Positions 5,258 through 44,650 of a DNA stretch of 64,000 bases are shown in pieces. The translations under genes and the position numbers were made by a program. Position 1 is the stretch's first letter. Every line of letters begins with the position of its first letter. The notes beneath the pieces were generated by a model. The model had not been told where the DNA came from. It did no database searches and was given only the letters and a program-made list of their open reading frames with translations. This DNA comes from an uncultured Gemmatimonadota bacterium (GTDB lineage: Bacteria > JAAXHH01), in assembly GCA_951812955.1 (NCBI GenBank), contig OX638340.1, forward strand, positions 1,824,001 to 1,888,000, in the 5' to 3' direction.

Positions 5258-5496
5258 CACGATTACACGGTAGTTTGTTAATTTTTGTAGGGGAATTAGT
5301 ATGTAAAAACAACAATACGGCAGGCAATAGAAGTTGGGTCTAGTTGTTCCCACCCGTATTGTCCCCAAGTGCTGTACTTTCAACGTACATTCAGTCAATT
5401 AAAAAAATCGTGACCCACCTCTTTAATTCTGATGTTCATTCTCCTTCGGGTGATGTTTGGTTTGATTTCAGTCGACATTGTATCCTTACGTGCATT

Positions 5497-7572
5497 CTAG
5501 TTCACTAACTCAAATACATGCTTAACACTACCGTCCGGTTTTAACACGAGCCCAAACCACTTTTCCAACTTATGTGGGTATACACTTTCTTTGGAATCCC
5601 GGTGAAATTTCTCCTCTAACACCTCCACGGTAGATCTACTACAGTAAATAAACAGTCCTATAGGTAAACCTGGGAACAAAGCACGAACTGTCTGGCTCTT
5701 CTTATTTAATAAATGCCGATTACAAATCCGATTGATATTTTTGTTTATAGTTTTACAAACATCGTCAGACAAGGTTATCAAGAAAAGCCCAAGGTCGATT
5801 TTCAATGGATCGGGGGAGGTTTCCAATTCCTTCAAGATGCTTCCCAAGGGCGTACCAACCAATCTTGTCAGTATGCCATCTGGAGTCGGTATTCCGTCTA
5901 TGCCGTCCCTCCTGACCGCCATTGCAGTATCGAGATGCACTGAGAAATCGTCATCAATTAACATCAAGTCAATATCGTCTCTAAGCCATAGGTTATGTCT
6001 TAGGTGATAGGACAGCAACATATGCTCATGACTCGCCATCAGACGCTCGCCAAATCGTGCCCGTAACTCAAGGTAACTTAAAAACCATAGAGGCGTAGAT
6101 AACATTTCTGATATCGCATCGAGTGAAAAAACGTCGGTGACAAGTGGAGGTAAAATCTGAGTAGTTGACTTGTATTCTAAAAACTGTCTCAACTGAAAAG
6201 CCAACGCCGGGTAATGGTCCGCGATGATTGCTACAGGAAAAATAACCTTCTGAGATTCTTCTATACGGATTACCTCGTTGTTCTTGGTATATAGACTTAC
6301 GGACTGATCTCCGAGGAGTTTAGCACACTCAAATGACTGCTCTACTGCATCTTGAATCGCCATCCTAAAGTCGGATCTTAACACTCGATCGTTCCCTCTT
6401 CGAGATTCCAGTGTTAGCCTTTTTGATTTCGATTGCACCAAAACAACCCGGTCGCCAAATATCACCAAGACATCAATCTCTCCAAGTGTGTGCCCTTTGG
6501 TCTTTCGTAACTCGACGTTTTTATACACTCGATCAGAACCAAAGACATGAACAAGTCTATCATATGTAAAGCTCTCCGTGAAATCCCCTCGATGTGTAAG
6601 TGCTGTTGGTGCATACAAACTATCAGTGCACATCCAATAGAACGGTGTTTCATAAAACGCTTCCGTTAATCCGTAATACTGCAAGAGTACGTATTTATCT
6701 ACATCTCTACGTATGAACGGGTAGATATAGGCTTTGTTAAAGTCATTGATAGTTGAGAAGCCAGCATTTCTTTCGCAAGAAGGTAAAGTAAATGCGTTTA
6801 CAAATGCTTGAACGTCTTCTGTAGGAAATCCTATATAGGAAGCAAGTTCAGTGCAGGAAAAGGTAAAGAAAGGTAAGACCGCCCGATCCTTAGCAGGCCC
6901 TTTTATTTGGTCGCTCAAGACTGTTTCTAAACTCCGGTTTAGGACGTAAGGAATCCCATCACACACCGCCTTTCCAACTACCAAATCAACTGATTTGTTC
7001 TGAGAAAGCCAGTCGGAATCGAGACTGTATTTTGTCAATGCTAGATCACGGTATTGAAAGGGATATGCAGACTCGCCTGCGTAGAAAATGGGTTCCCTAA
7101 GGGATTCCCCGGTAGAGAATGGATTTGCATTAGGGACAGACCCGCCGACTACTCTCCGCTGCATCAACTTCAACGTAGGTTGCACCATAGTTAAGTGCAA
7201 TTCATCCAACAGTTCCGCGGACTTCTTGATGTAATCATTAAGAACTGTAGGTGTTGGCATGGAAAAGTCGATAGGGCCTCGCATCATGAGACCGATTAGC
7301 GTGGTGATTTCGGTACGGATTAGCTGCGAATGGGATCGCCATTGAAGAAGTTCGTCGGAATTTAGTTCATCCTTGAAACCGACGACATTGTCCCGCAGTG
7401 AAATAAAAGCGATTGCGTGAATAAAACCTACGGAGAGGCACAATGCAGCCAGGTCATCAAACACAGACTGTTCTGAGCGCATATAAACGATCCTGGGCTG
7501 TAGCAGACAATTCCAAATTGCGTCTATTGGATTCGAAAGCCAAGAGTTGGATTCTGAATCCGAACCGTTCAT
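5497..7572 (-). CDS. Large hypothetical protein with an internal NERD / PD-(D/E)xK-like nuclease motif; candidate defence effector
   Basis: 691-aa ORF, low-GC codon usage. Central GHTLGEIDVLVIFGDRVVLVQSKSKR resembles the NERD/PD-(D/E)xK core (D...Q/E-x-K). No Walker A and no methyltransferase motifs. Possible Rx4H HEPN-like motif (RLMASH) in the C-terminal third. Confidence 0.6.
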   Translation of the reverse strand: MNGSDSESNSWLSNPIDAIWNCLLQPRIVYMRSEQSVFDDLAALCLSVGFIHAIAFISLRDNVVGFKDELNSDELLQWRSHSQLIRTEITTLIGLMMRGPIDFSMPTPTVLNDYIKKSAELLDELHLTMVQPTLKLMQRRVVGGSVPNANPFSTGESLREPIFYAGESAYPFQYRDLALTKYSLDSDWLSQNKSVDLVVGKAVCDGIPYVLNRSLETVLSDQIKGPAKDRAVLPFFTFSCTELASYIGFPTEDVQAFVNAFTLPSCERNAGFSTINDFNKAYIYPFIRRDVDKYVLLQYYGLTEAFYETPFYWMCTDSLYAPTALTHRGDFTESFTYDRLVHVFGSDRVYKNVELRKTKGHTLGEIDVLVIFGDRVVLVQSKSKRLTLESRRGNDRVLRSDFRMAIQDAVEQSFECAKLLGDQSVSLYTKNNEVIRIEESQKVIFPVAIIADHYPALAFQLRQFLEYKSTTQILPPLVTDVFSLDAISEMLSTPLWFLSYLELRARFGERLMASHEHMLLSYHLRHNLWLRDDIDLMLIDDDFSVHLDTAMAVRRDGIDGIPTPDGILTRLVGTPLGSILKELETSPDPLKIDLGLFLITLSDDVCKTINKNINRICNRHLLNKKSQTVRALFPGLPIGLFIYCSRSTVEVLEEKFHRDSKESVYPHKLEKWFGLVLKPDGSVKHVFELVN

Positions 7573-7708
7573 CCATGGCTTTTAACTTTAGATTCTCCAG
7601 ATAGCTGTTTCGGATAATTAAACAAGTCAGTTCGCCGGAAACATCTCGTGCAACCCGCGCTGATACACCGTTGGTGACTACAGCTTCACCGTCGGTGTGA
7701 ACGCACCT

Positions 7709-7960
7709 TTACCGGTTGTTGTGATTATCCACGGGTTTGTTTTCTTCTGAAGCGTGGTGGTCATCGCCTAACGGGATTAAATCCTTCGATATAGCCAGCG
7801 AACCGCCTATTAGAGCCATGAGTGGAGACTTTACGACTTCGTAAGCGTCCTCCGCTGTCATTCCTCCGCTCCAACACATCGCAACGAAGATGATTATAAG
7901 CGAAGAGTAACCTAAACCCACAAGGACCAGTACATTCTTCCGCCACGGAACCTTCATCAT
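7709..7960 (-). CDS. Small membrane protein (about 83 aa, one or two TM helices) upstream partner of the 691-aa gene
   Basis: Strong RBS AAGGAGGA immediately before an ATG ATG start. Hydrophobic stretch LVLVGLGYSSLIIIFVAMCW. Located 137 bp upstream of the large gene on the same strand. Confidence 0.55.
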   Translation of the reverse strand: MMKVPWRKNVLVLVGLGYSSLIIIFVAMCWSGGMTAEDAYEVVKSPLMALIGGSLAISKDLIPLGDDHHASEENKPVDNHNNR

Positions 7961-8029
7961 ATCCTCCTTTTGGGTATTCTCCCAATTCACATAATATGTT
8001 TGACAATCGCTTTATAATGCTCCGAGCAA

Positions 8030-9445
8030 CTAACCAAACAACTCCTGCACCATTCCCCGCGCCCGATCGATCACGGTTTCGAGACAGCCGGGTGCTAGCT
8101 TGGCCCAGTAGGTGACATCTTCGTTGGCCTCGTGTCCACCGCGGGCATATGCCTCCCTCGTCGGCAGGTAACCGACATAGTGCGTCGTGAGGTGTGCCGG
8201 AAACAGATAGGAAGCTGGCGAGTTTACTTTAAGCGACAGTTGTCCTTCCACAAAGGGCTCACCGGGGAGGCCTACAATACAAAGATTACCGATGCGCAAG
8301 GCCTGTATCTCATAGCTGAACTCGCCGTCCCTCTGCCTGCATAGTTCGACGCTGCGGGTCGATGCCGCCCGAAACCAGCGCGGCTCCACTTGACCGTTCT
8401 CTTCGCGCGGCGGTTCCGGATGCTCAGTGAGAATCGCATCGACTTCGCGCAGTCGTTCGTCCGATATCTCGCGAAAGGGCAGTCTGATCTTTTCTATCCT
8501 TGTATCTAGCGCAGCATCGCCGGCGAACGTCATGTTGCGCATGATACGTTCGCTCAGACCGGATAATCCTCGCCCCATACGCCGGTGGTCCGGCTTAAAA
8601 TCGGGGTCGAAGGGGTGCCAGGGGTTGATGTTGCCGCAACATCCGTTGACGACCAACGGCACGGAATCCGGATCGAAAATCTGCTGCATCTCCCGGGACC
8701 AGGCGCCGGGCCAATCCGCCGACGCGGCCATGAAGGTCTCCTCGTTTCCGTATGCATTGACCGGATGACACGTGTAGTGCAGGAGAAAGGCCAGCGGTTT
8801 CGAATTCATATCCTGGACGCAGCACACGCCTACCTCCGGGTCCATCGGCCCTTCCAGGTAGCACACATCCGAGATCCCGAAGGGCTGCCGCTCCCGACCA
8901 AGGGGTCTGGGCATAACTATGGTACCGTCCCTTCGAACGCCGCGGCGGTTAAAAGCCAGGTCGCCCAACACGCCGCGGCCCAGACCGATGCGTGCCGGTT
9001 GTAGCCTGCCGGCTGCCTCGACCGCGGCCTCAACGGCAGCGGCTGCGGCCCGGTCGCCATAGGCGCGTTCGGCCCCCCGCAGATACTCCGTTTCCTCGCT
9101 AGTCTCCATTGGAAAATCCGAATCCAGCATGAAGTAACCGAGGCTCGGGGCGGAATGCGTCTGCGTCGCCTGGACCATGATGGCGTCTCGTTCTATGCCC
9201 GTCTGCTCGCTGATGGCCGCACGGATCCGGTCTGTGTATTCACCGGTGACAATGGTGAGATCCAGGATCACGATGCAGACGCGCCGCCCATCCGCTTCGA
9301 AAACGATGGCCTTGGCAAAGAGCGGATCCAAAACGGCCTGGGTCGGACGGTGGTCACCGGCTCCGCTGCCCGCCAGATGCGTCCCCTCCGAAGGGGATAT
9401 GTCGATCATTGCCGCACCGGCGCTCAGCTGGTTCGACTCGTTCAT
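8030..9445 (-). CDS. Hypothetical hydrolase, neutral/alkaline ceramidase-like
   Basis: About 470 aa. N-terminal region (IDISP...AKAIVFEADGRRVCIVILDL...) resembles the neutral ceramidase N-terminal domain. Start set at the ATG preceded by GGAAAG; the ORF extends further to 9589. Confidence 0.45.
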   Translation of the reverse strand: MNESNQLSAGAAMIDISPSEGTHLAGSGAGDHRPTQAVLDPLFAKAIVFEADGRRVCIVILDLTIVTGEYTDRIRAAISEQTGIERDAIMVQATQTHSAPSLGYFMLDSDFPMETSEETEYLRGAERAYGDRAAAAAVEAAVEAAGRLQPARIGLGRGVLGDLAFNRRGVRRDGTIVMPRPLGRERQPFGISDVCYLEGPMDPEVGVCCVQDMNSKPLAFLLHYTCHPVNAYGNEETFMAASADWPGAWSREMQQIFDPDSVPLVVNGCCGNINPWHPFDPDFKPDHRRMGRGLSGLSERIMRNMTFAGDAALDTRIEKIRLPFREISDERLREVDAILTEHPEPPREENGQVEPRWFRAASTRSVELCRQRDGEFSYEIQALRIGNLCIVGLPGEPFVEGQLSLKVNSPASYLFPAHLTTHYVGYLPTREAYARGGHEANEDVTYWAKLAPGCLETVIDRARGMVQELFG

Positions 9446-9796
9446 GGCTTTCCTTTCGCAGTCTGAAGAGTAACCCGTGGGGCGTAACCCAGGGACCCGC
9501 GCGGGGATTATCCCGTGTGGGGAGGATCCCAGTCCATGTGGGGAGTAACTCGTAACGTACAGACTATGGCACCAGTACCGTTTCGTCAACGCCGTTCAGC
9601 CTTGACAGACGCGTGTATCTTACTTGTATCACAGTGTACGAAGATATGGGTTAAACGGCGCGGTCCAGTGGAGTACTCGAGCAACAGGCGAACGGAGCGC
9701 CGCGTATTAGCCGCCGGCCAGTTGATGAAGACCGACATGCATGATGAAGACTAACGCACAGAATGGTCACACCATCTGAGAAAGGACTGGTCAATC

Positions 9797-31736: not shown

Positions 31737-34142
31737 GTGTTCCAGAACTACCTCAGTGTAGCCTTACGCAACCTCCGCAGGCATCCCGCCTACTCGCTCA
31801 TCAACATCGCAGGGCTTGCAATCGGCATGGCCACCTGCGTCCTGATCCTCCTGTATATCCAGGATGAGCTCAGCTACGACCGATATCATCCTCATGCCGA
31901 CCGCGTATACCGGATCGTCGACGACATCGAAAGCGGGGGACAGACCGTCCAGACCGCCGGGACTCCCACTGCCTGGGGACCTGCCCTGAAGCGCGACTTC
32001 CCCGAGATCGAGCTCGTTGTCCGGTTGAGAGGTACAGAATCCGCGTGGCTGGTCGATCTCGGCAACACAATCTACTATGAACGCAAAGTCATCTGGGCGG
32101 GATCGGACCTGTTCAGGATGTTCAGTTTTCCACTGGTCGCGGGCGACCCGGGCACCGCGCTGGCAGAACCGTATTCGATGGTGATCACCGAGGAATTGGC
32201 AGACAAGTATTTCGGCGCCGAAGAAGCCATTGGCAAAGCAGTCAATCTCGACAATCGCTGGGACTTCACGGTGACGGGCGTCATGAAGAACATTCCTACC
32301 AATTCTCACATGCGTCCAGACATGTTCGTATCCTATAGCACAATGATTGCGATACAGGCCTCCTGGGACCTGGAAGACTGGGAGTACCACCGAAACCTGT
32401 ACACCTACATCCGGCTCCGCGAGCATGTGTCACCGGATGATCTGGAAGCGAAATTGCCGGCATTTCTGGAACGTCACGCGGGTGACCAGTACCGGGAGGC
32501 GGGCATCAGCCTGCGGCCGTCGCTCCAGCCCCTGGTGGACATCCACCTCTATTCTAACCGGGAGAGTGAGCACGAACCCAACGGCGATATCCGGTACGTG
32601 GCCCTCTTCATGGCCATCGCGTTCCTGATCCTTATTATCGCATGCATCAATTTCATCAACCTGGCCACGGCCCGTTCCGAGATGCGCGCCAGGGAAGTCG
32701 GTGTGAGAAAGGTACTGGGCGCGAATCGGATCCAGTTGATCCGCCAGTTCCTGGGAGAATCGGTCCTCATGGCAGGTCTCGCCGCGATCGTTGCGGTAAT
32801 ACTGGTCCATCTCGCCTTGCCTGCCGTGAACGATATCGCGGGGAAACAACTCGCGCTGCCGCTTGCTGACTGGACCGTGCTGGCCGCGCTGGCCCTCGGT
32901 ACGACCTTGATCGGATTAACCGCCGGCAGTTATCCCGCGGCATACCTGTCGGGATTTCTTCCCGCCGTAGTAATGAAAGGCAACCCGGAGACGGGAAAGA
33001 AAGGCCTGGGGATGCGGCAGGCACTGGTGGTGATACAGTTCTCCATGTCCATCTTCCTGCTGGTCAGTACGGCCATCATCCATGATCAGCTCGATTACAT
33101 CCAGACCAAGCGGCTGGGTTTCAACAAAGAGCACGTTATGGTCGTCCCCATAACAGGTTCCCCGCAACTGCCAAATACGCCTGTCCTGAAGCAGCGCCTG
33201 TCGGAATTGCCCGGTGTCGTGGGTATCGCAACGACCACCGGCGTGCCAGGCATGCGGGTTATGCCTATCCTGGAGGTACGTCCCGAAGGAATGCGGCCTG
33301 AGGATCACCTGATGATGGCCACGCTGCACGTGGACGAGCACTTCCTGGACGTCATGAACATCGATCTCGTCGCTGGCCGGAACTTTTCATCGGACTGGGG
33401 TACGGATACGACCAGGGGGATCCTGATGAACGAGACGGCCGTCCGGTACCTGGACTGGGGAGCGCCCGACGACGCCATCGGCAGGCAAATCGAGCGGCTC
33501 AACTACAACAGGACGAAAGGCCGTGTGATCGGCGTGGTTCGGGATTTCCACCTGCGGACCATACACGAAGAGATCGAACCCGCATTGATCATGACCAGCA
33601 CCTATCACATTTTCGTCCTGATTCGAATCCAGCCCGAGGGAATCTCTGACACCATTGCACACATCGAGGAAATATGGAGGGATGTGGATCCCAGGTTTCC
33701 GCTGGATTATACCTTCCTGGACGAGGATTTCGACGCGCTGTACCGGACCGACCAGCAGCTTGGCGAGATCTTCGCGGTCTTCGCGTTTCTCGCGATCTTC
33801 GTGGCCTGCCTTGGACTCCTGGGTCTGGCTTCCTTTTCCATCCAGCAACGCACCCGCGAGATCGGAATCCGCAAAGTAGTCGGTTCATCGGTTTCCAGTA
33901 TCGTGTTGCTCCTGTCGAAGGATTTTATGAAGTACGTGCTCCTGGCGAACCTGATCGCCTGGCCGCTGACCTACTTCGTCATGAACAACTGGCTGCAGAA
34001 CTACGCCTACGCCGCGGAACTTCGATTCGAGTGGTTTATGGCCGGCGGTGTTTTTGCCCTGGTCATTGCCTGGTTGACGATCGGTGCGCATGCCCTCGCT
34101 GCGTCGCGTAGGAATCCGGTGAACGCGTTGCGGCAGGGGTGA
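31737..34142 (+). CDS. ABC transporter permease, FtsX/MacB-like (paralog 2), GTG start
   Basis: Same architecture and N-/C-terminal signatures as 28387-30783. Confidence 0.9.
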   Translation: MFQNYLSVALRNLRRHPAYSLINIAGLAIGMATCVLILLYIQDELSYDRYHPHADRVYRIVDDIESGGQTVQTAGTPTAWGPALKRDFPEIELVVRLRGTESAWLVDLGNTIYYERKVIWAGSDLFRMFSFPLVAGDPGTALAEPYSMVITEELADKYFGAEEAIGKAVNLDNRWDFTVTGVMKNIPTNSHMRPDMFVSYSTMIAIQASWDLEDWEYHRNLYTYIRLREHVSPDDLEAKLPAFLERHAGDQYREAGISLRPSLQPLVDIHLYSNRESEHEPNGDIRYVALFMAIAFLILIIACINFINLATARSEMRAREVGVRKVLGANRIQLIRQFLGESVLMAGLAAIVAVILVHLALPAVNDIAGKQLALPLADWTVLAALALGTTLIGLTAGSYPAAYLSGFLPAVVMKGNPETGKKGLGMRQALVVIQFSMSIFLLVSTAIIHDQLDYIQTKRLGFNKEHVMVVPITGSPQLPNTPVLKQRLSELPGVVGIATTTGVPGMRVMPILEVRPEGMRPEDHLMMATLHVDEHFLDVMNIDLVAGRNFSSDWGTDTTRGILMNETAVRYLDWGAPDDAIGRQIERLNYNRTKGRVIGVVRDFHLRTIHEEIEPALIMTSTYHIFVLIRIQPEGISDTIAHIEEIWRDVDPRFPLDYTFLDEDFDALYRTDQQLGEIFAVFAFLAIFVACLGLLGLASFSIQQRTREIGIRKVVGSSVSSIVLLLSKDFMKYVLLANLIAWPLTYFVMNNWLQNYAYAAELRFEWFMAGGVFALVIAWLTIGAHALAASRRNPVNALRQG

Positions 34143-34700: not shown

Positions 34701-37106
34701 ATGGTTTTCCATTACCTCAGAATCGCCCTACGTAACATGATCCGGCAGCCTGGCTACGCCGGCATCAACATCCTCGGACTGGCGATCGGCATCACCTGCT
34801 GTATGCTGATTTTGCTGTATATCCGGAACGAACTGAGCTACGACCGTTTCCATGATCATGCCGATCGGATCTACCGTGTAGTAAACGGCAATTCCGCCCG
34901 CACGCCACCCGCAGTGGGACCGGCGTTCAAAGAACTGTTCCTGGAGGTAGAGGAATATGCCCGGATGCGGGGCACAGCCAATATCTGGATGATGGCCTAT
35001 GGGGACAATGCCTTCTTTGAAAGCGATGTCTTCAGGGCAAGCAGAGGCGTTTTCAAGGTCTTTTCTTTTCCGCTTGTACGGGGAAATCCACAAACCGCAC
35101 TGGACGACTATGCGCATCCGGAACAAACTGTCGTCATCAGCGAAACTATGGCGACTAAACTCTTCGGTGACGAAAATCCCATGGGCAAGCTGATCCGCGC
35201 GGACGATGAGGAAGACCTTCGTGTGACCGGTGTGATGAAAGCTGTGCCGTCCAATTCCCACTTCGCCGTCGAATATCTGGTTTGTGAGCGTCTCGATGTT
35301 GGAAATCTCAGCGAGCGTTACGCAACGAACTGGTTTGCTGCGGTGCATTTCACCTACGTTCTGCTGTCAGAGGGAACAGACCCCAGTGAATTGGAGAATA
35401 AAATCGCCAGATGGGCAGATACCTTTGAACCGCTGATGCGGCTCAAGGCGCGAGGCCTGCCCTTCACTCCCCGGCTACAGCCAATGACCGACATCCATCT
35501 GCGGTCGCACCTGGAAGAGGATATGGCAAGCAACAGCGATATCAGCTACATCTACATCTTTTCGGTCGTAGCGTTTTTTGTCGTTCTGATCGCCTGTATC
35601 AACTTCATGAATCTGGCCACGGCGCGGGCTACCATCCGGGCTAGAGAAGTGGCCATTCGGAAAACAACAGGCGCTTCGCGGACCGAGTTGATCATACAAT
35701 ACATGGGCGAGTCCATGATGTCGGCCGGGTTGGCCTTTGTAGTTGCCATGGCCCTCTTTATCGCCATCCTGCCCTGGTTCAATACGCTGGTGGGAAAGGC
35801 GTTTCAGATCAGTTACCTTGACAGTCCGGAGATGTTGCTCTGGATGATGGGCATAACGTTGTTTGTGGGACTGTTGTCCGGCAGTTATCCTGCGCTGTTT
35901 ATATCCAGGATTCATCCGGCAGGGATTTTCAGGGGTGAATTGACAAGCGGAACCACGGGTTCCACACTGCGCAAGAGCCTTGTGGTGGCGCAGTTCACGC
36001 TATCGATTCTGCTGATTATCAGTACGGCTATTGTGTATCAACAGCTGGATCACATGCAAAGTAAACAACTGGGATTCGATAAGGACCAGGTCGTGGTAAT
36101 CCCACTTATCGGAGGTGTGGAGCGGGATTTCAATGCCTTCAAGGCCCGGCTTTCCCAGAGTCCACATATTCAGCGTGTTACTCGATCTGTATTGATGCCG
36201 GGACGTATGGCCAGTTCCGTTCAAATGCCCGCCTTTGCAACACGTCTGGCAGATCAGCCTGAAGAGAAAATGGTCAGGATTCCCGCCCTGTTTGTTTCTG
36301 CCGATTTCGAAGAAACCCTTGGTCTCAGATTGCTTTCCGGACGTCCATTTTCCAGCGAACTGAACGATGATTCGAACAACGCGGTGATCCTTAACCGGGC
36401 CGCGGTTGAACGATTGGGGCTGACCACACCGGAGGAAGTCGCAGGACTTCATATACGTTACATAGGGAGCTCTCCAATCAGGATCATAGGCGTCGTAGAG
36501 GATTTCCATATGCAGAGCGTTCATAGTGCGGCAGGGCCGGTACAGCTGAGGTTCATGAACCGCGGTGGCGGCGGCCAGGCGGCGATACGATTACAGGCGC
36601 AGAATATACCGGATGGGATTGATGCGATTGAAGACACATGGGCTTCGATATTCCCCGACTACCCGTTAGCGTATTCGTTTCTGGATGAAGATTTCGAGCG
36701 ATTGTACGTGTCGGAACGACAGACCGGCAATCTGCTCGGGGCATTCAGCTTTCTAGCCATCTTCATTGCGTGTCTGGGCCTGTTCGGCCTTGCTGCGTTC
36801 ACCACCCGTCAGCAAACCAAAGAGGTCGGTATTCACAAAGTAATGGGGGCTTCGGTGACTCGTATCGTCTTTATGCTTTCAAAGGATTTTCTCAAGCTGG
36901 TAGCGATTGCCGTACCGGTCGCCTGGGTCCTGGCTTACTGGGCCATGAGCAACTGGCTGCAGAACTTCGCGTATCGGGTCGATATCGGCCCCGCGTGGTT
37001 CCTGATCGCCGCTTTCCTGGCACTGGCCATCGCACTGGCTACAGTCAGTTTCAAGGCGGTAACGACTGCGTTGACGAACCCGGTGGAGAGCCTGCGGTCA
37101 GAATAG
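34701..37106 (+). CDS. ABC transporter permease, FtsX/MacB-like (paralog 3, the most divergent)
   Basis: MVFHYLRIALRNMIRQPGYAGINILGLAIGITCCMLILLYIRNELSYDRFH; 801 aa. Confidence 0.9.
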   Translation: MVFHYLRIALRNMIRQPGYAGINILGLAIGITCCMLILLYIRNELSYDRFHDHADRIYRVVNGNSARTPPAVGPAFKELFLEVEEYARMRGTANIWMMAYGDNAFFESDVFRASRGVFKVFSFPLVRGNPQTALDDYAHPEQTVVISETMATKLFGDENPMGKLIRADDEEDLRVTGVMKAVPSNSHFAVEYLVCERLDVGNLSERYATNWFAAVHFTYVLLSEGTDPSELENKIARWADTFEPLMRLKARGLPFTPRLQPMTDIHLRSHLEEDMASNSDISYIYIFSVVAFFVVLIACINFMNLATARATIRAREVAIRKTTGASRTELIIQYMGESMMSAGLAFVVAMALFIAILPWFNTLVGKAFQISYLDSPEMLLWMMGITLFVGLLSGSYPALFISRIHPAGIFRGELTSGTTGSTLRKSLVVAQFTLSILLIISTAIVYQQLDHMQSKQLGFDKDQVVVIPLIGGVERDFNAFKARLSQSPHIQRVTRSVLMPGRMASSVQMPAFATRLADQPEEKMVRIPALFVSADFEETLGLRLLSGRPFSSELNDDSNNAVILNRAAVERLGLTTPEEVAGLHIRYIGSSPIRIIGVVEDFHMQSVHSAAGPVQLRFMNRGGGGQAAIRLQAQNIPDGIDAIEDTWASIFPDYPLAYSFLDEDFERLYVSERQTGNLLGAFSFLAIFIACLGLFGLAAFTTRQQTKEVGIHKVMGASVTRIVFMLSKDFLKLVAIAVPVAWVLAYWAMSNWLQNFAYRVDIGPAWFLIAAFLALAIALATVSFKAVTTALTNPVESLRSE

Positions 37107-43765: not shown

Positions 43766-43846
43766 AAAGTGCCTTCTTGGGATGGTAGGTAGTAAAGATT
43801 GAGATTAGGGTTGTGCCAGTCTGGTCTGGCACCAAGGACGGGCATC

Positions 43847-44650
43847 ATGAATCAACCATTCGATGAAGCGGTAGAGGCCATTATAACCGGGGACGCAGCC
43901 ACCCTGACGAAGCTGTTGGTGGCACATCCCGATCTCATCAAGGCCCGGTCCCGGTCCGATCACAAGGCGACCCTGCTGCACTATGTGGCTGCCAATGGCG
44001 TCAAGGACGAGCTGCAAAAATCGCCGGAGAATGCCGCGGAAATCGCCCGGATACTGCTCGAGGCCGGGGCGGAGGTCGACACCCTCGCCGAAACATACGG
44101 TGGGGGCACGAACCAGACGACGCTATGCCTGCTGGTTTCCAGTATACATCCGGCGGCAGCGGGTGTGCAGCCGGCGCTGGTGCAGGTTTTATGTGATGCG
44201 GGCGCGGCTGTTAACGGAGTCGCTGATGACGGGGCGCCACTGGGAACCGCGTTGCTGTTCAGCTATAGGAAGTCGGTCGATATGCTGGCGAGGTGCGGCG
44301 CGCGCATCGATAATCTGCTTTTCGCCGCCGGCGTGGGCGACCTCGCGAGGGTGAAGTCCTTTCTCCACACAGACGGCCGGCTAAGACCCGAGGGGATGTA
44401 CCATGGGTCCCATCTCCCATCCCCTGCCGATGAGAAGTCACAGGTCGACCTGGCATTCGGCCTGGCCTGCTATCACTTGAGGATCGAAGTGATCCGGTTC
44501 CTCCTTGAAATGGGCGTGGATGTCAATGTTCGTTCGAACATTTTCGGTAGCATGCAAACCGGTCTATACTGGGCAACCCACGGTTTCCATACGGAGGAAG
44601 AGGAGCGCCCTGTCGTTGCGTTTCTGCAGTCACAGGGTGCTACCTCGTAA
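43847..44650 (+). CDS. Ankyrin-repeat protein
   Basis: TLLHYVAANG...LLEAGAEVD and further ..LH.A.......LL..GA..N repeat patterns. The ORF may start upstream at a TTG (43799). Confidence 0.55.
   Translation: MNQPFDEAVEAIITGDAATLTKLLVAHPDLIKARSRSDHKATLLHYVAANGVKDELQKSPENAAEIARILLEAGAEVDTLAETYGGGTNQTTLCLLVSSIHPAAAGVQPALVQVLCDAGAAVNGVADDGAPLGTALLFSYRKSVDMLARCGARIDNLLFAAGVGDLARVKSFLHTDGRLRPEGMYHGSHLPSPADEKSQVDLAFGLACYHLRIEVIRFLLEMGVDVNVRSNIFGSMQTGLYWATHGFHTEEEERPVVAFLQSQGATS

Follow-up and report, generated by a model that had tools for sequence, protein, structure and literature searches.

The NERD domain is a recognised restriction-enzyme-fold effector in defence, where it is found in PglW of type 2 BREX, in DndF and in HEC-02. 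ZwsA (Zowangsin) is a stand-alone NERD effector directed against RNA phages, and its flanking domains are needed for this function (10.64898/2026.04.06.716636). Upx, a single-protein PD-(D/E)xK sensor-effector, senses phage terminase (PMC13099982, PMC13601566; PDB 9wuf). The present analysis concerns a NERD-family gene on the minus strand of a 64-kb stretch of DNA (the window) from an uncultured Gemmatimonadota bacterium (contig OX638340.1). From its sequence, the encoded protein is predicted to be a multidomain nuclease that stands alone and belongs to the NERD branch of the PD-(D/E)xK (restriction-endonuclease-fold) superfamily. We infer, with a probability of about 0.55, that it would serve as a one-protein defence nuclease, held inactive by family-specific N- and C-terminal domains and freed by an infection cue. 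None of the systems compared, ZwsA and Upx included, shares the architecture of this protein.

An earlier note had described a 691-amino-acid (aa) protein at positions 5497-7572. An uninterrupted open reading frame (ORF) of 691 codons is present there on the minus strand in the ORF translation of the window; the plus-strand reading of the same interval was discarded, as it gave only stops on translation. The likely protein, however, is shorter. Translation most likely begins at M31, for a length of 661 aa and a coding sequence at 5497-7482, because the identical protein in the public database is recorded as 661 aa long, all 38 aligned homologs (38/38) start at the equivalent MRSEQ, and a Shine-Dalgarno (SD) sequence, AGGA, lies 8 nt upstream of M31 while none was found before M1 of the maximal ORF. 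The 30 codons ahead of M31 are probably untranslated, to judge from the same comparison. Residue numbers given below follow the 661-aa protein; those of the earlier note are higher by 30. The gene is laid out as follows.

5497..7482, minus strand: NERD-family gene, 661 aa plus stop, defined by the ORF, homolog N-termini, public record and SD.
5497-5499, minus strand: stop codon of this gene, with the amino-acid codons running from 7482 down to 5500.
7483..7572, minus strand: 30-codon upstream extension of the maximal ORF, in no homolog and with M1 lacking an SD.

The earlier note had placed a NERD / PD-(D/E)xK-like motif in the middle of the protein and had pointed to a second string, RLMASH, in its C-terminal third. 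Both GEIDVLVIFGDRVVLVQSKSKR and RLMASH are found in the minus-strand translation of the 5497-7572 ORF. The nuclease region comprises the following features.

6103..6678, minus strand: NERD / PD-(D/E)xK nuclease core, aa 269-460.
6574..6576, minus strand: E303, acidic residue of active-site helix alpha1, conserved in 196/196 homologs, codon checked.
6421..6483, minus strand: catalytic motif GEIDVLV...VQSKSK, aa 334-354 (E335, D337, Q350, K352, K354), translation checked.

The protein matches Pfam NERD (PF08378) at 25.0-25.2 bits against a gathering cutoff of 22.1, and 37 of 39 aligned family members match the same model at E <= 0.01 (best 1.6e-07). The alpha-beta-beta-beta-alpha-beta core fold of PD-(D/E)xK enzymes is present. 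The catalytic residues characteristic of the superfamily, an acid in helix alpha1, a D in strand beta2 and (D/E/Q)xK in strand beta3, are found as E303, D337, and Q350 with K352. In the homolog alignment E303, D337, Q350, K352 and K354 are each conserved in 196 of 196 sequences, which is far beyond chance, and position 335 is E in 187 and D in 9 of them. The best structural matches of the protein are the restriction enzymes BspD6I, HindIII, FokI and McrC. The mid-protein motif is thus upheld by the Pfam match, the fold and the invariant residues, also at the two points where it could have failed, namely the absence of a PD-(D/E)xK core and poor conservation of the motif residues.

The E...ExD...xK layout, its spacing and the fold are shared with NERD (PF08378). 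The family differs from it in an invariant Q at the third acidic position and in the central placing of the domain, which has about 270 residues on its N-terminal side and 200 on its C-terminal side, none of them covered by a model. Unlike the NERD defence systems, it has no kinase, helicase or ABC ATPase partner here. With ZwsA it has in common a single gene and a NERD domain set between other domains, and E535/D567/E580/K582 of ZwsA are spaced almost exactly as E303/D337/Q350/K352 are. ZwsA, however, carries VHS, DUF647 and S4 domains, whereas NERD alone is detected in the present protein at E <= 1. ZwsA also has ExK and an RNA substrate in contrast to the QxK seen here, the comparison being one of descriptions and not of sequences. 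Assignment to ZwsA was rejected, the combination of VHS, DUF647, NERD and S4 being incomplete.

In Tn7 TnsA, the residues E63, D114 and Q130-x-K132 belong to an active enzyme (a literature search for this precedent gave nothing relevant). It is improbable that Q350 abolishes cleavage in the present family and that the protein is a catalytically impaired nuclease fold acting as a nucleic-acid-binding regulator or scaffold. Such a role would agree with a residue that is Q in all 196 homologs, never E or D, and the lack of an antitoxin or immunity gene is compatible with a non-toxic protein. Yet E303, D337, K352 and K354 would hardly all be invariant in a protein without catalysis, (D/E/Q)xK is listed as a variant in the published PD-(D/E)xK phosphodiesterase signature, and one family member, P0076, adds an HNH nuclease. 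The extra domain of this 914-aa homolog is an N-terminal HNH_5 endonuclease domain (E = 8.7e-13), and P0076 would thus be a two-nuclease protein.

The regions on either side of the nuclease core are divided as follows.

6898..7482, minus strand: N-terminal all-alpha domain, aa 1-195, family-specific.
7126..7194, minus strand: hypervariable segment, aa 97-119, a low-confidence loop and the sole stretch with entropy >2.9 bits.
7039..7101, minus strand: N-domain motif LREPIFYxGESAYxFQYRDLA, aa 128-148, entropy <0.7 bits, translation checked.
6679..6897, minus strand: linker or winged-helix-like segment, aa 196-268, ahead of the nuclease core.
5500..6102, minus strand: C-terminal region, aa 461-661, helical and conserved at 461-595, then a divergent beta-beta-alpha-beta-beta stretch to the end (596-661).
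6028..6045, minus strand: RLMASH, aa 480-485, proposed as a HEPN-like Rx4H; translation checked, not a real motif.

The two large flanking domains, which the earlier note could not assign, still match nothing: neither the ~270 N-terminal nor the 200 C-terminal residues have a counterpart in Pfam, NCBIfam, PADLOC or, by sequence, the PDB. Searches of the PDB with the protein sequence and with the family profile returned noise only, and the all-alpha N-terminal domain has no structural relative there. In the alignment all five segments of the protein are conserved, over its full length. Variability was followed as sliding-window entropy over the homolog alignment; by this measure the motif at aa 128-148 is the most invariant part of the N-domain, and the hypervariable stretch at aa 97-119 directly precedes it. 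The invariant residue set of the N-domain is E58/E94/H96/E130/Y140/Q143/D155. The predicted local distance difference test (pLDDT) score of AlphaFold falls below 50 at aa 110-137 in the full-length model and at aa 128-145 in the isolated-domain model; the low confidence in much of the aa 97-148 region takes in the invariant motif. Winged-helix-like modules were detected by structural search. At aa 461-595, 23% of the alignment columns are >=95% conserved, including E486, H493, N497, R524 and R525. A SEC-C tail is carried by 107-118 of the 196 homologs and is missing from the protein encoded at 5500-7482; a literature search for NERD together with SEC-C found nothing.

The suggestion that RLMASH is a HEPN-like Rx4H did not survive. 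The C-terminal third would then be a HEPN RNase domain with this string as its Rx4-6H, which is hardly credible: an R-x4-H string does occur at aa 480-485, in a helical region, but R480 is kept in only 37 of the 196 homologs (K in 103, Q in 24, N in 16), and such a string is no commoner than chance would allow. Three Rx4H strings occur in the protein where ~0.96 are expected, and 63% of shuffles have at least one. H485 is kept in 166/196 and is followed by the invariant E486, and in the AlphaFold model R480 and H485 border a low-confidence loop between two helices. No HEPN family or fold was recovered in Pfam, structural or other searches of the protein.

The remaining sensor-nucleases compared differ more widely. 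Upx is 1,272 aa long, with domains at 1-515, 516-714 and 715-1272 and a C-terminal nuclease, in contrast to 661 aa and a nuclease at aa 269-460 here. Its structural overlap with the NERD-family protein is weak, and neither the protein nor the family profile matches 9wuf or any other PDB chain; membership was ruled out on size, domain order and the missing sequence or profile similarity. Can2 and Card1, which join CARF to PD-(D/E)xK, give TM-scores of 0.18-0.27 against the protein, and there is no CRISPR context at this locus. Since the region ahead of the nuclease is all-alpha, no CARF (Rossmann-like) sensor is present, and with the N-terminal CARF missing, membership in Can2 / Card1 was rejected. 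In PADLOC, which probably includes a Upx model, the sole match is to CARF_PDDEXK (E = 0.06), and it covers profile positions 238-304 only, the nuclease part. GapS1 (NCBIfam NF047931) was likewise set aside at 11.9 bits, its cutoff being 320.

The family comprises >1,473 clusters of full-length homologs and ~950 representative sequences, with members in no fewer than 444 of the 185,579 species-representative genomes. It is present in Acidobacteriota, Nitrospirota, Planctomycetota, Bacteroidota, Cyanobacteria and Firmicutes as well as in Alpha-, Beta-, Gamma- and Deltaproteobacteria. The names of several homolog-bearing metagenome-assembled genomes suggest host-associated, possibly sponge-symbiont, communities. 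Copies were found on 34 plasmids, among which 22 are conjugative and two are archaeal (Halobaculum); the family thus crosses the boundary between bacteria and archaea. Cultivable hosts of homologs include Agrobacterium tumefaciens (pAt, WP_099086648), Achromobacter sp. M1, Pseudomonas neustonica SSM26, Brucella anthropi OA9225 and Halomonas koreensis DSM 23530. The 50,697 phage genomes searched contained no match, and complete E. coli genomes gave none at the DNA level. The spread across phyla and plasmids is patchy, and the neighbours include restriction, toxin-antitoxin and mobile-element genes. GenBank names for the members are inconsistent, being 'SEC-C metal-binding domain-containing protein', 'nuclease-related domain-containing protein' or 'prepilin peptidase'. 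The last is attached to P0060, P0062 and the plasmid hits H4, H5 and H7; no domain search supported a peptidase domain in family members, and the name looks like a propagated mis-annotation.

Conservation of neighbours was computed over 80 loci. No neighbour gene is conserved among them (the best cluster occurs in 6/80), and the gene thus travels alone. The linked methyltransferase of classical restriction-modification is missing, with none among the 25 commonest nearest-neighbour families. In individual contexts, P0061 is surrounded by HsdR, RelE with a helix-turn-helix protein, and an integrase, and P0012 by resolvases, insertion sequence (IS) elements, a group II intron and DUF499. The closest homolog, P0002, has a block of ResIII/RE_endonuc, methylase, AAA/S8-peptidase and UvrD genes upstream, of which the methylase is part of a separate ResIII system, and AAA_13 and DUF4145 downstream. 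P0051 shares its island with integrase, HigB, IS66, ImmA-like and AAA_21 genes, and P0115 directly follows an MNT-HEPN pair and MazE/SymE. On the Agrobacterium pAt plasmid (L090) the gene is flanked to one side by genes for a PLD-like protein and an AAA protein of 1,142 aa, and to the other by an HxsABC radical-SAM cluster with a further AAA protein, of 1,176 aa; this locus looks like an uncharacterised accessory or defence region. The copy on a Sphingomonas plasmid neighbours AbiEii and a recombinase. A census of nearest neighbours returned integrases, AbiE, Fic, HipA, RhuM, Rep_trans, TrwC and AAA_13, mixed with housekeeping genes.

These surroundings bear on two further explanations. The protein could be a solitary restriction-type endonuclease, either type IV-like and modification-dependent or directly specific for foreign DNA, acting with neither a protein trigger nor autoinhibition. 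The restriction enzymes among its structural matches would suit such an enzyme, as would winged-helix-like modules that recognise DNA together with the flanking domains, and the gene is carried by hosts or plasmids, with no copy in the phages searched. Modification-dependent enzymes are expected to lack a cognate methyltransferase, and neither this nor any other partner is present in the 80 loci; a stand-alone nuclease with winged-helix-like modules is also what Mrr and the type IV enzymes present. This explanation is nevertheless doubtful. No Mrr, McrB, GmrSD or other type IV family was matched in Pfam (neither Mrr_cat nor Mrr_N), and the conserved N- and C-terminal domains are additional to what Mrr contains. 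The candidate recognition helices, read from sequence, are not notably basic, and a large invariant N-domain with a single hypervariable loop is atypical of known type IV enzymes.

Alternatively, the gene might benefit the element that carries it and not the phage resistance of the host, as a maintenance or competition factor in plasmid or integrative and conjugative element exclusion, addiction or recombination. We consider this unlikely. Most copies are chromosomal and their sites vary greatly, no linkage to a transfer, replication or recombinase gene is conserved, and one copy per genome was seen in the loci studied. The insert that carries the gene here has neither terminal repeats nor a recombinase. 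In its favour are the 34 plasmids with their 22 conjugative members, the TrwC relaxase, Rep_trans, resolvases, IS elements and integrases among the neighbours, and the foreign nature of the present insert, which is bounded as follows.

5258..8029, no strand assigned: low-GC insert of 2,772 bp, between the convergent stops of a PhyH-like gene (ends 5257) and a ceramidase-like gene (ends 8030).

The guanine-cytosine (GC) content of the insert is 0.436 against 0.58-0.61 in its flanks, and the GC at third codon positions (GC3) is 0.44 in the NERD-family gene against 0.69-0.76 in neighbouring genes. Three metagenomic relatives, L092, L093 and L094, whose flanking genes are 87-91% identical, show the same order of ERG, ceramidase-like, PhyH and SDR genes. 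Only ~14-22 bp separate the two convergent stop codons at the position of the insert in these relatives, which thus represent the empty site. The composition and the empty sites indicate that horizontal transfer brought the gene here, within a low-GC insert of 2.77 kb. No integrase, tRNA, Rfam RNA or convincing terminal repeat was found in 5258-8029, no convincing excess of promoters or terminators was seen in the insert, and its non-coding ends match nothing else. A 14-nt inverted match (5449-5462 / 8032-8045) was rejected as a terminal repeat, being at chance level by estimate. The remainder of the 64-kb window holds ordinary metabolism and transport genes, and the insert is thus an isolated islet here.

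A housekeeping nuclease of DNA repair or recombination would fit the large number of repair enzymes among PD-(D/E)xK nucleases and the housekeeping genes among the neighbours. It is very unlikely for a family found in only ~444 of 185,579 species genomes, for a gene that is absent from the same locus in close relatives, and for a foreign composition with no conserved synteny.

The defence reading, by contrast with these rivals, would account for the gene by the following mechanism. The N-terminal domain and the conserved C-terminal helical region would keep the nuclease inactive. The hypervariable loop at aa 97-119, leading into the invariant pocket motif at aa 128-148, is the best candidate for a recognition site, and detection of an infection cue would release the nuclease. 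The metal-dependent NERD site would then cleave nucleic acid, DNA being the likelier substrate and RNA a possible one, and the target of the defence would be phage or mobile elements. The SEC-C zinc knuckle of most homologs may be an accessory binding module that this copy lacks. The lack of an immunity or methylase partner speaks for either autoinhibition or an intrinsic specificity for foreign nucleic acid. More tentatively, the family may be a new single-protein immune sensor-effector in which the N-domain either senses infection in a new way or provides a second site, catalytic or ligand-binding, made up of its invariant residues E58/E94/H96/E130/Y140/Q143/D155, with the loop at aa 97-119 reading a phage-derived protein or nucleic acid and unlocking the QxK nuclease.

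Several observations weigh against assigning the protein to defence. The association with defence islands is qualitative, coming from ~12 annotated contexts and the census without a background control, and many neighbours of family members are housekeeping genes. In this genome the insert is isolated, outside any defence island. That the N- and C-terminal domains may act as sensors is suggested by conservation patterns, and the hypervariable loop could be a plain linker. The invariant Q350 replaces E/D and may mean altered or reduced catalysis. Finally, the protein has no clear counterpart in the defence models searched: its best E-value in PADLOC is 0.06, and the score for NCBIfam GapS1 (NF047931) is 11.9 bits where 320 are needed.

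The insert carries one further gene.

7709..7960, minus strand: small gene of 83 aa, a predicted two-transmembrane membrane protein with a strong SD AAAGGAGGAT.

Its product belongs to a family of 131 homologs without a Pfam domain, whose genes elsewhere adjoin transposases of IS21 and IS1595 and a methylase-HNH gene. The gene is absent near the 80 NERD-family loci. It was considered as a partner or immunity gene, and this was ruled out by its absence from these loci and by the unrelated neighbours it has elsewhere; going by this distribution it appears to be an independent passenger and not a conserved partner.

At the same intergenic site, relative L096 (flanking genes ~78% identical) has ~2.7 kb of different, GC-normal genes (positions 7410-10090 of L096), which to judge from their translations look like a 515-aa beta-propeller-like protein, a 146-aa protein and a RidA-like protein. 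These occupants are GC-normal metabolic genes, and the site is thus not a shared defence hotspot; it seems to tolerate insertions. The flanking 519-aa gene (8030-9589, minus strand) matches the N-terminal part of neutral/alkaline ceramidase at 27 bits, below the Pfam cutoff of 32.1, and is kept at 66-91% identity in 11 metagenome contigs; its product appears to be a divergent ceramidase-like protein. Elsewhere in the window, two MacB/FtsX-type permease paralogs of 801 aa each lie ~560 bp apart (31737-34142 and 34701-37106), and an ankyrin-repeat protein is encoded at 43799-44650.

The gene is a plausible new single-gene defence system from a widespread, uncharacterised family. It is not a conceptual surprise, because systems of this kind are already known. 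Experiments that place NERD nucleases in phage defence are recent (HEC-02, ZwsA), and there is much current work on single-protein sensor-nucleases such as Upx. The present family is always a stand-alone gene, is covered by no defence database tested, and combines two conserved domains of no known fold with an active site of an unusual, fixed QxK type. Validation would make it a new family of defence proteins with a new sensor domain, and a propagated mis-annotation would be corrected. If it is not a defence gene, it would still be a widespread mobile nuclease of unknown role.
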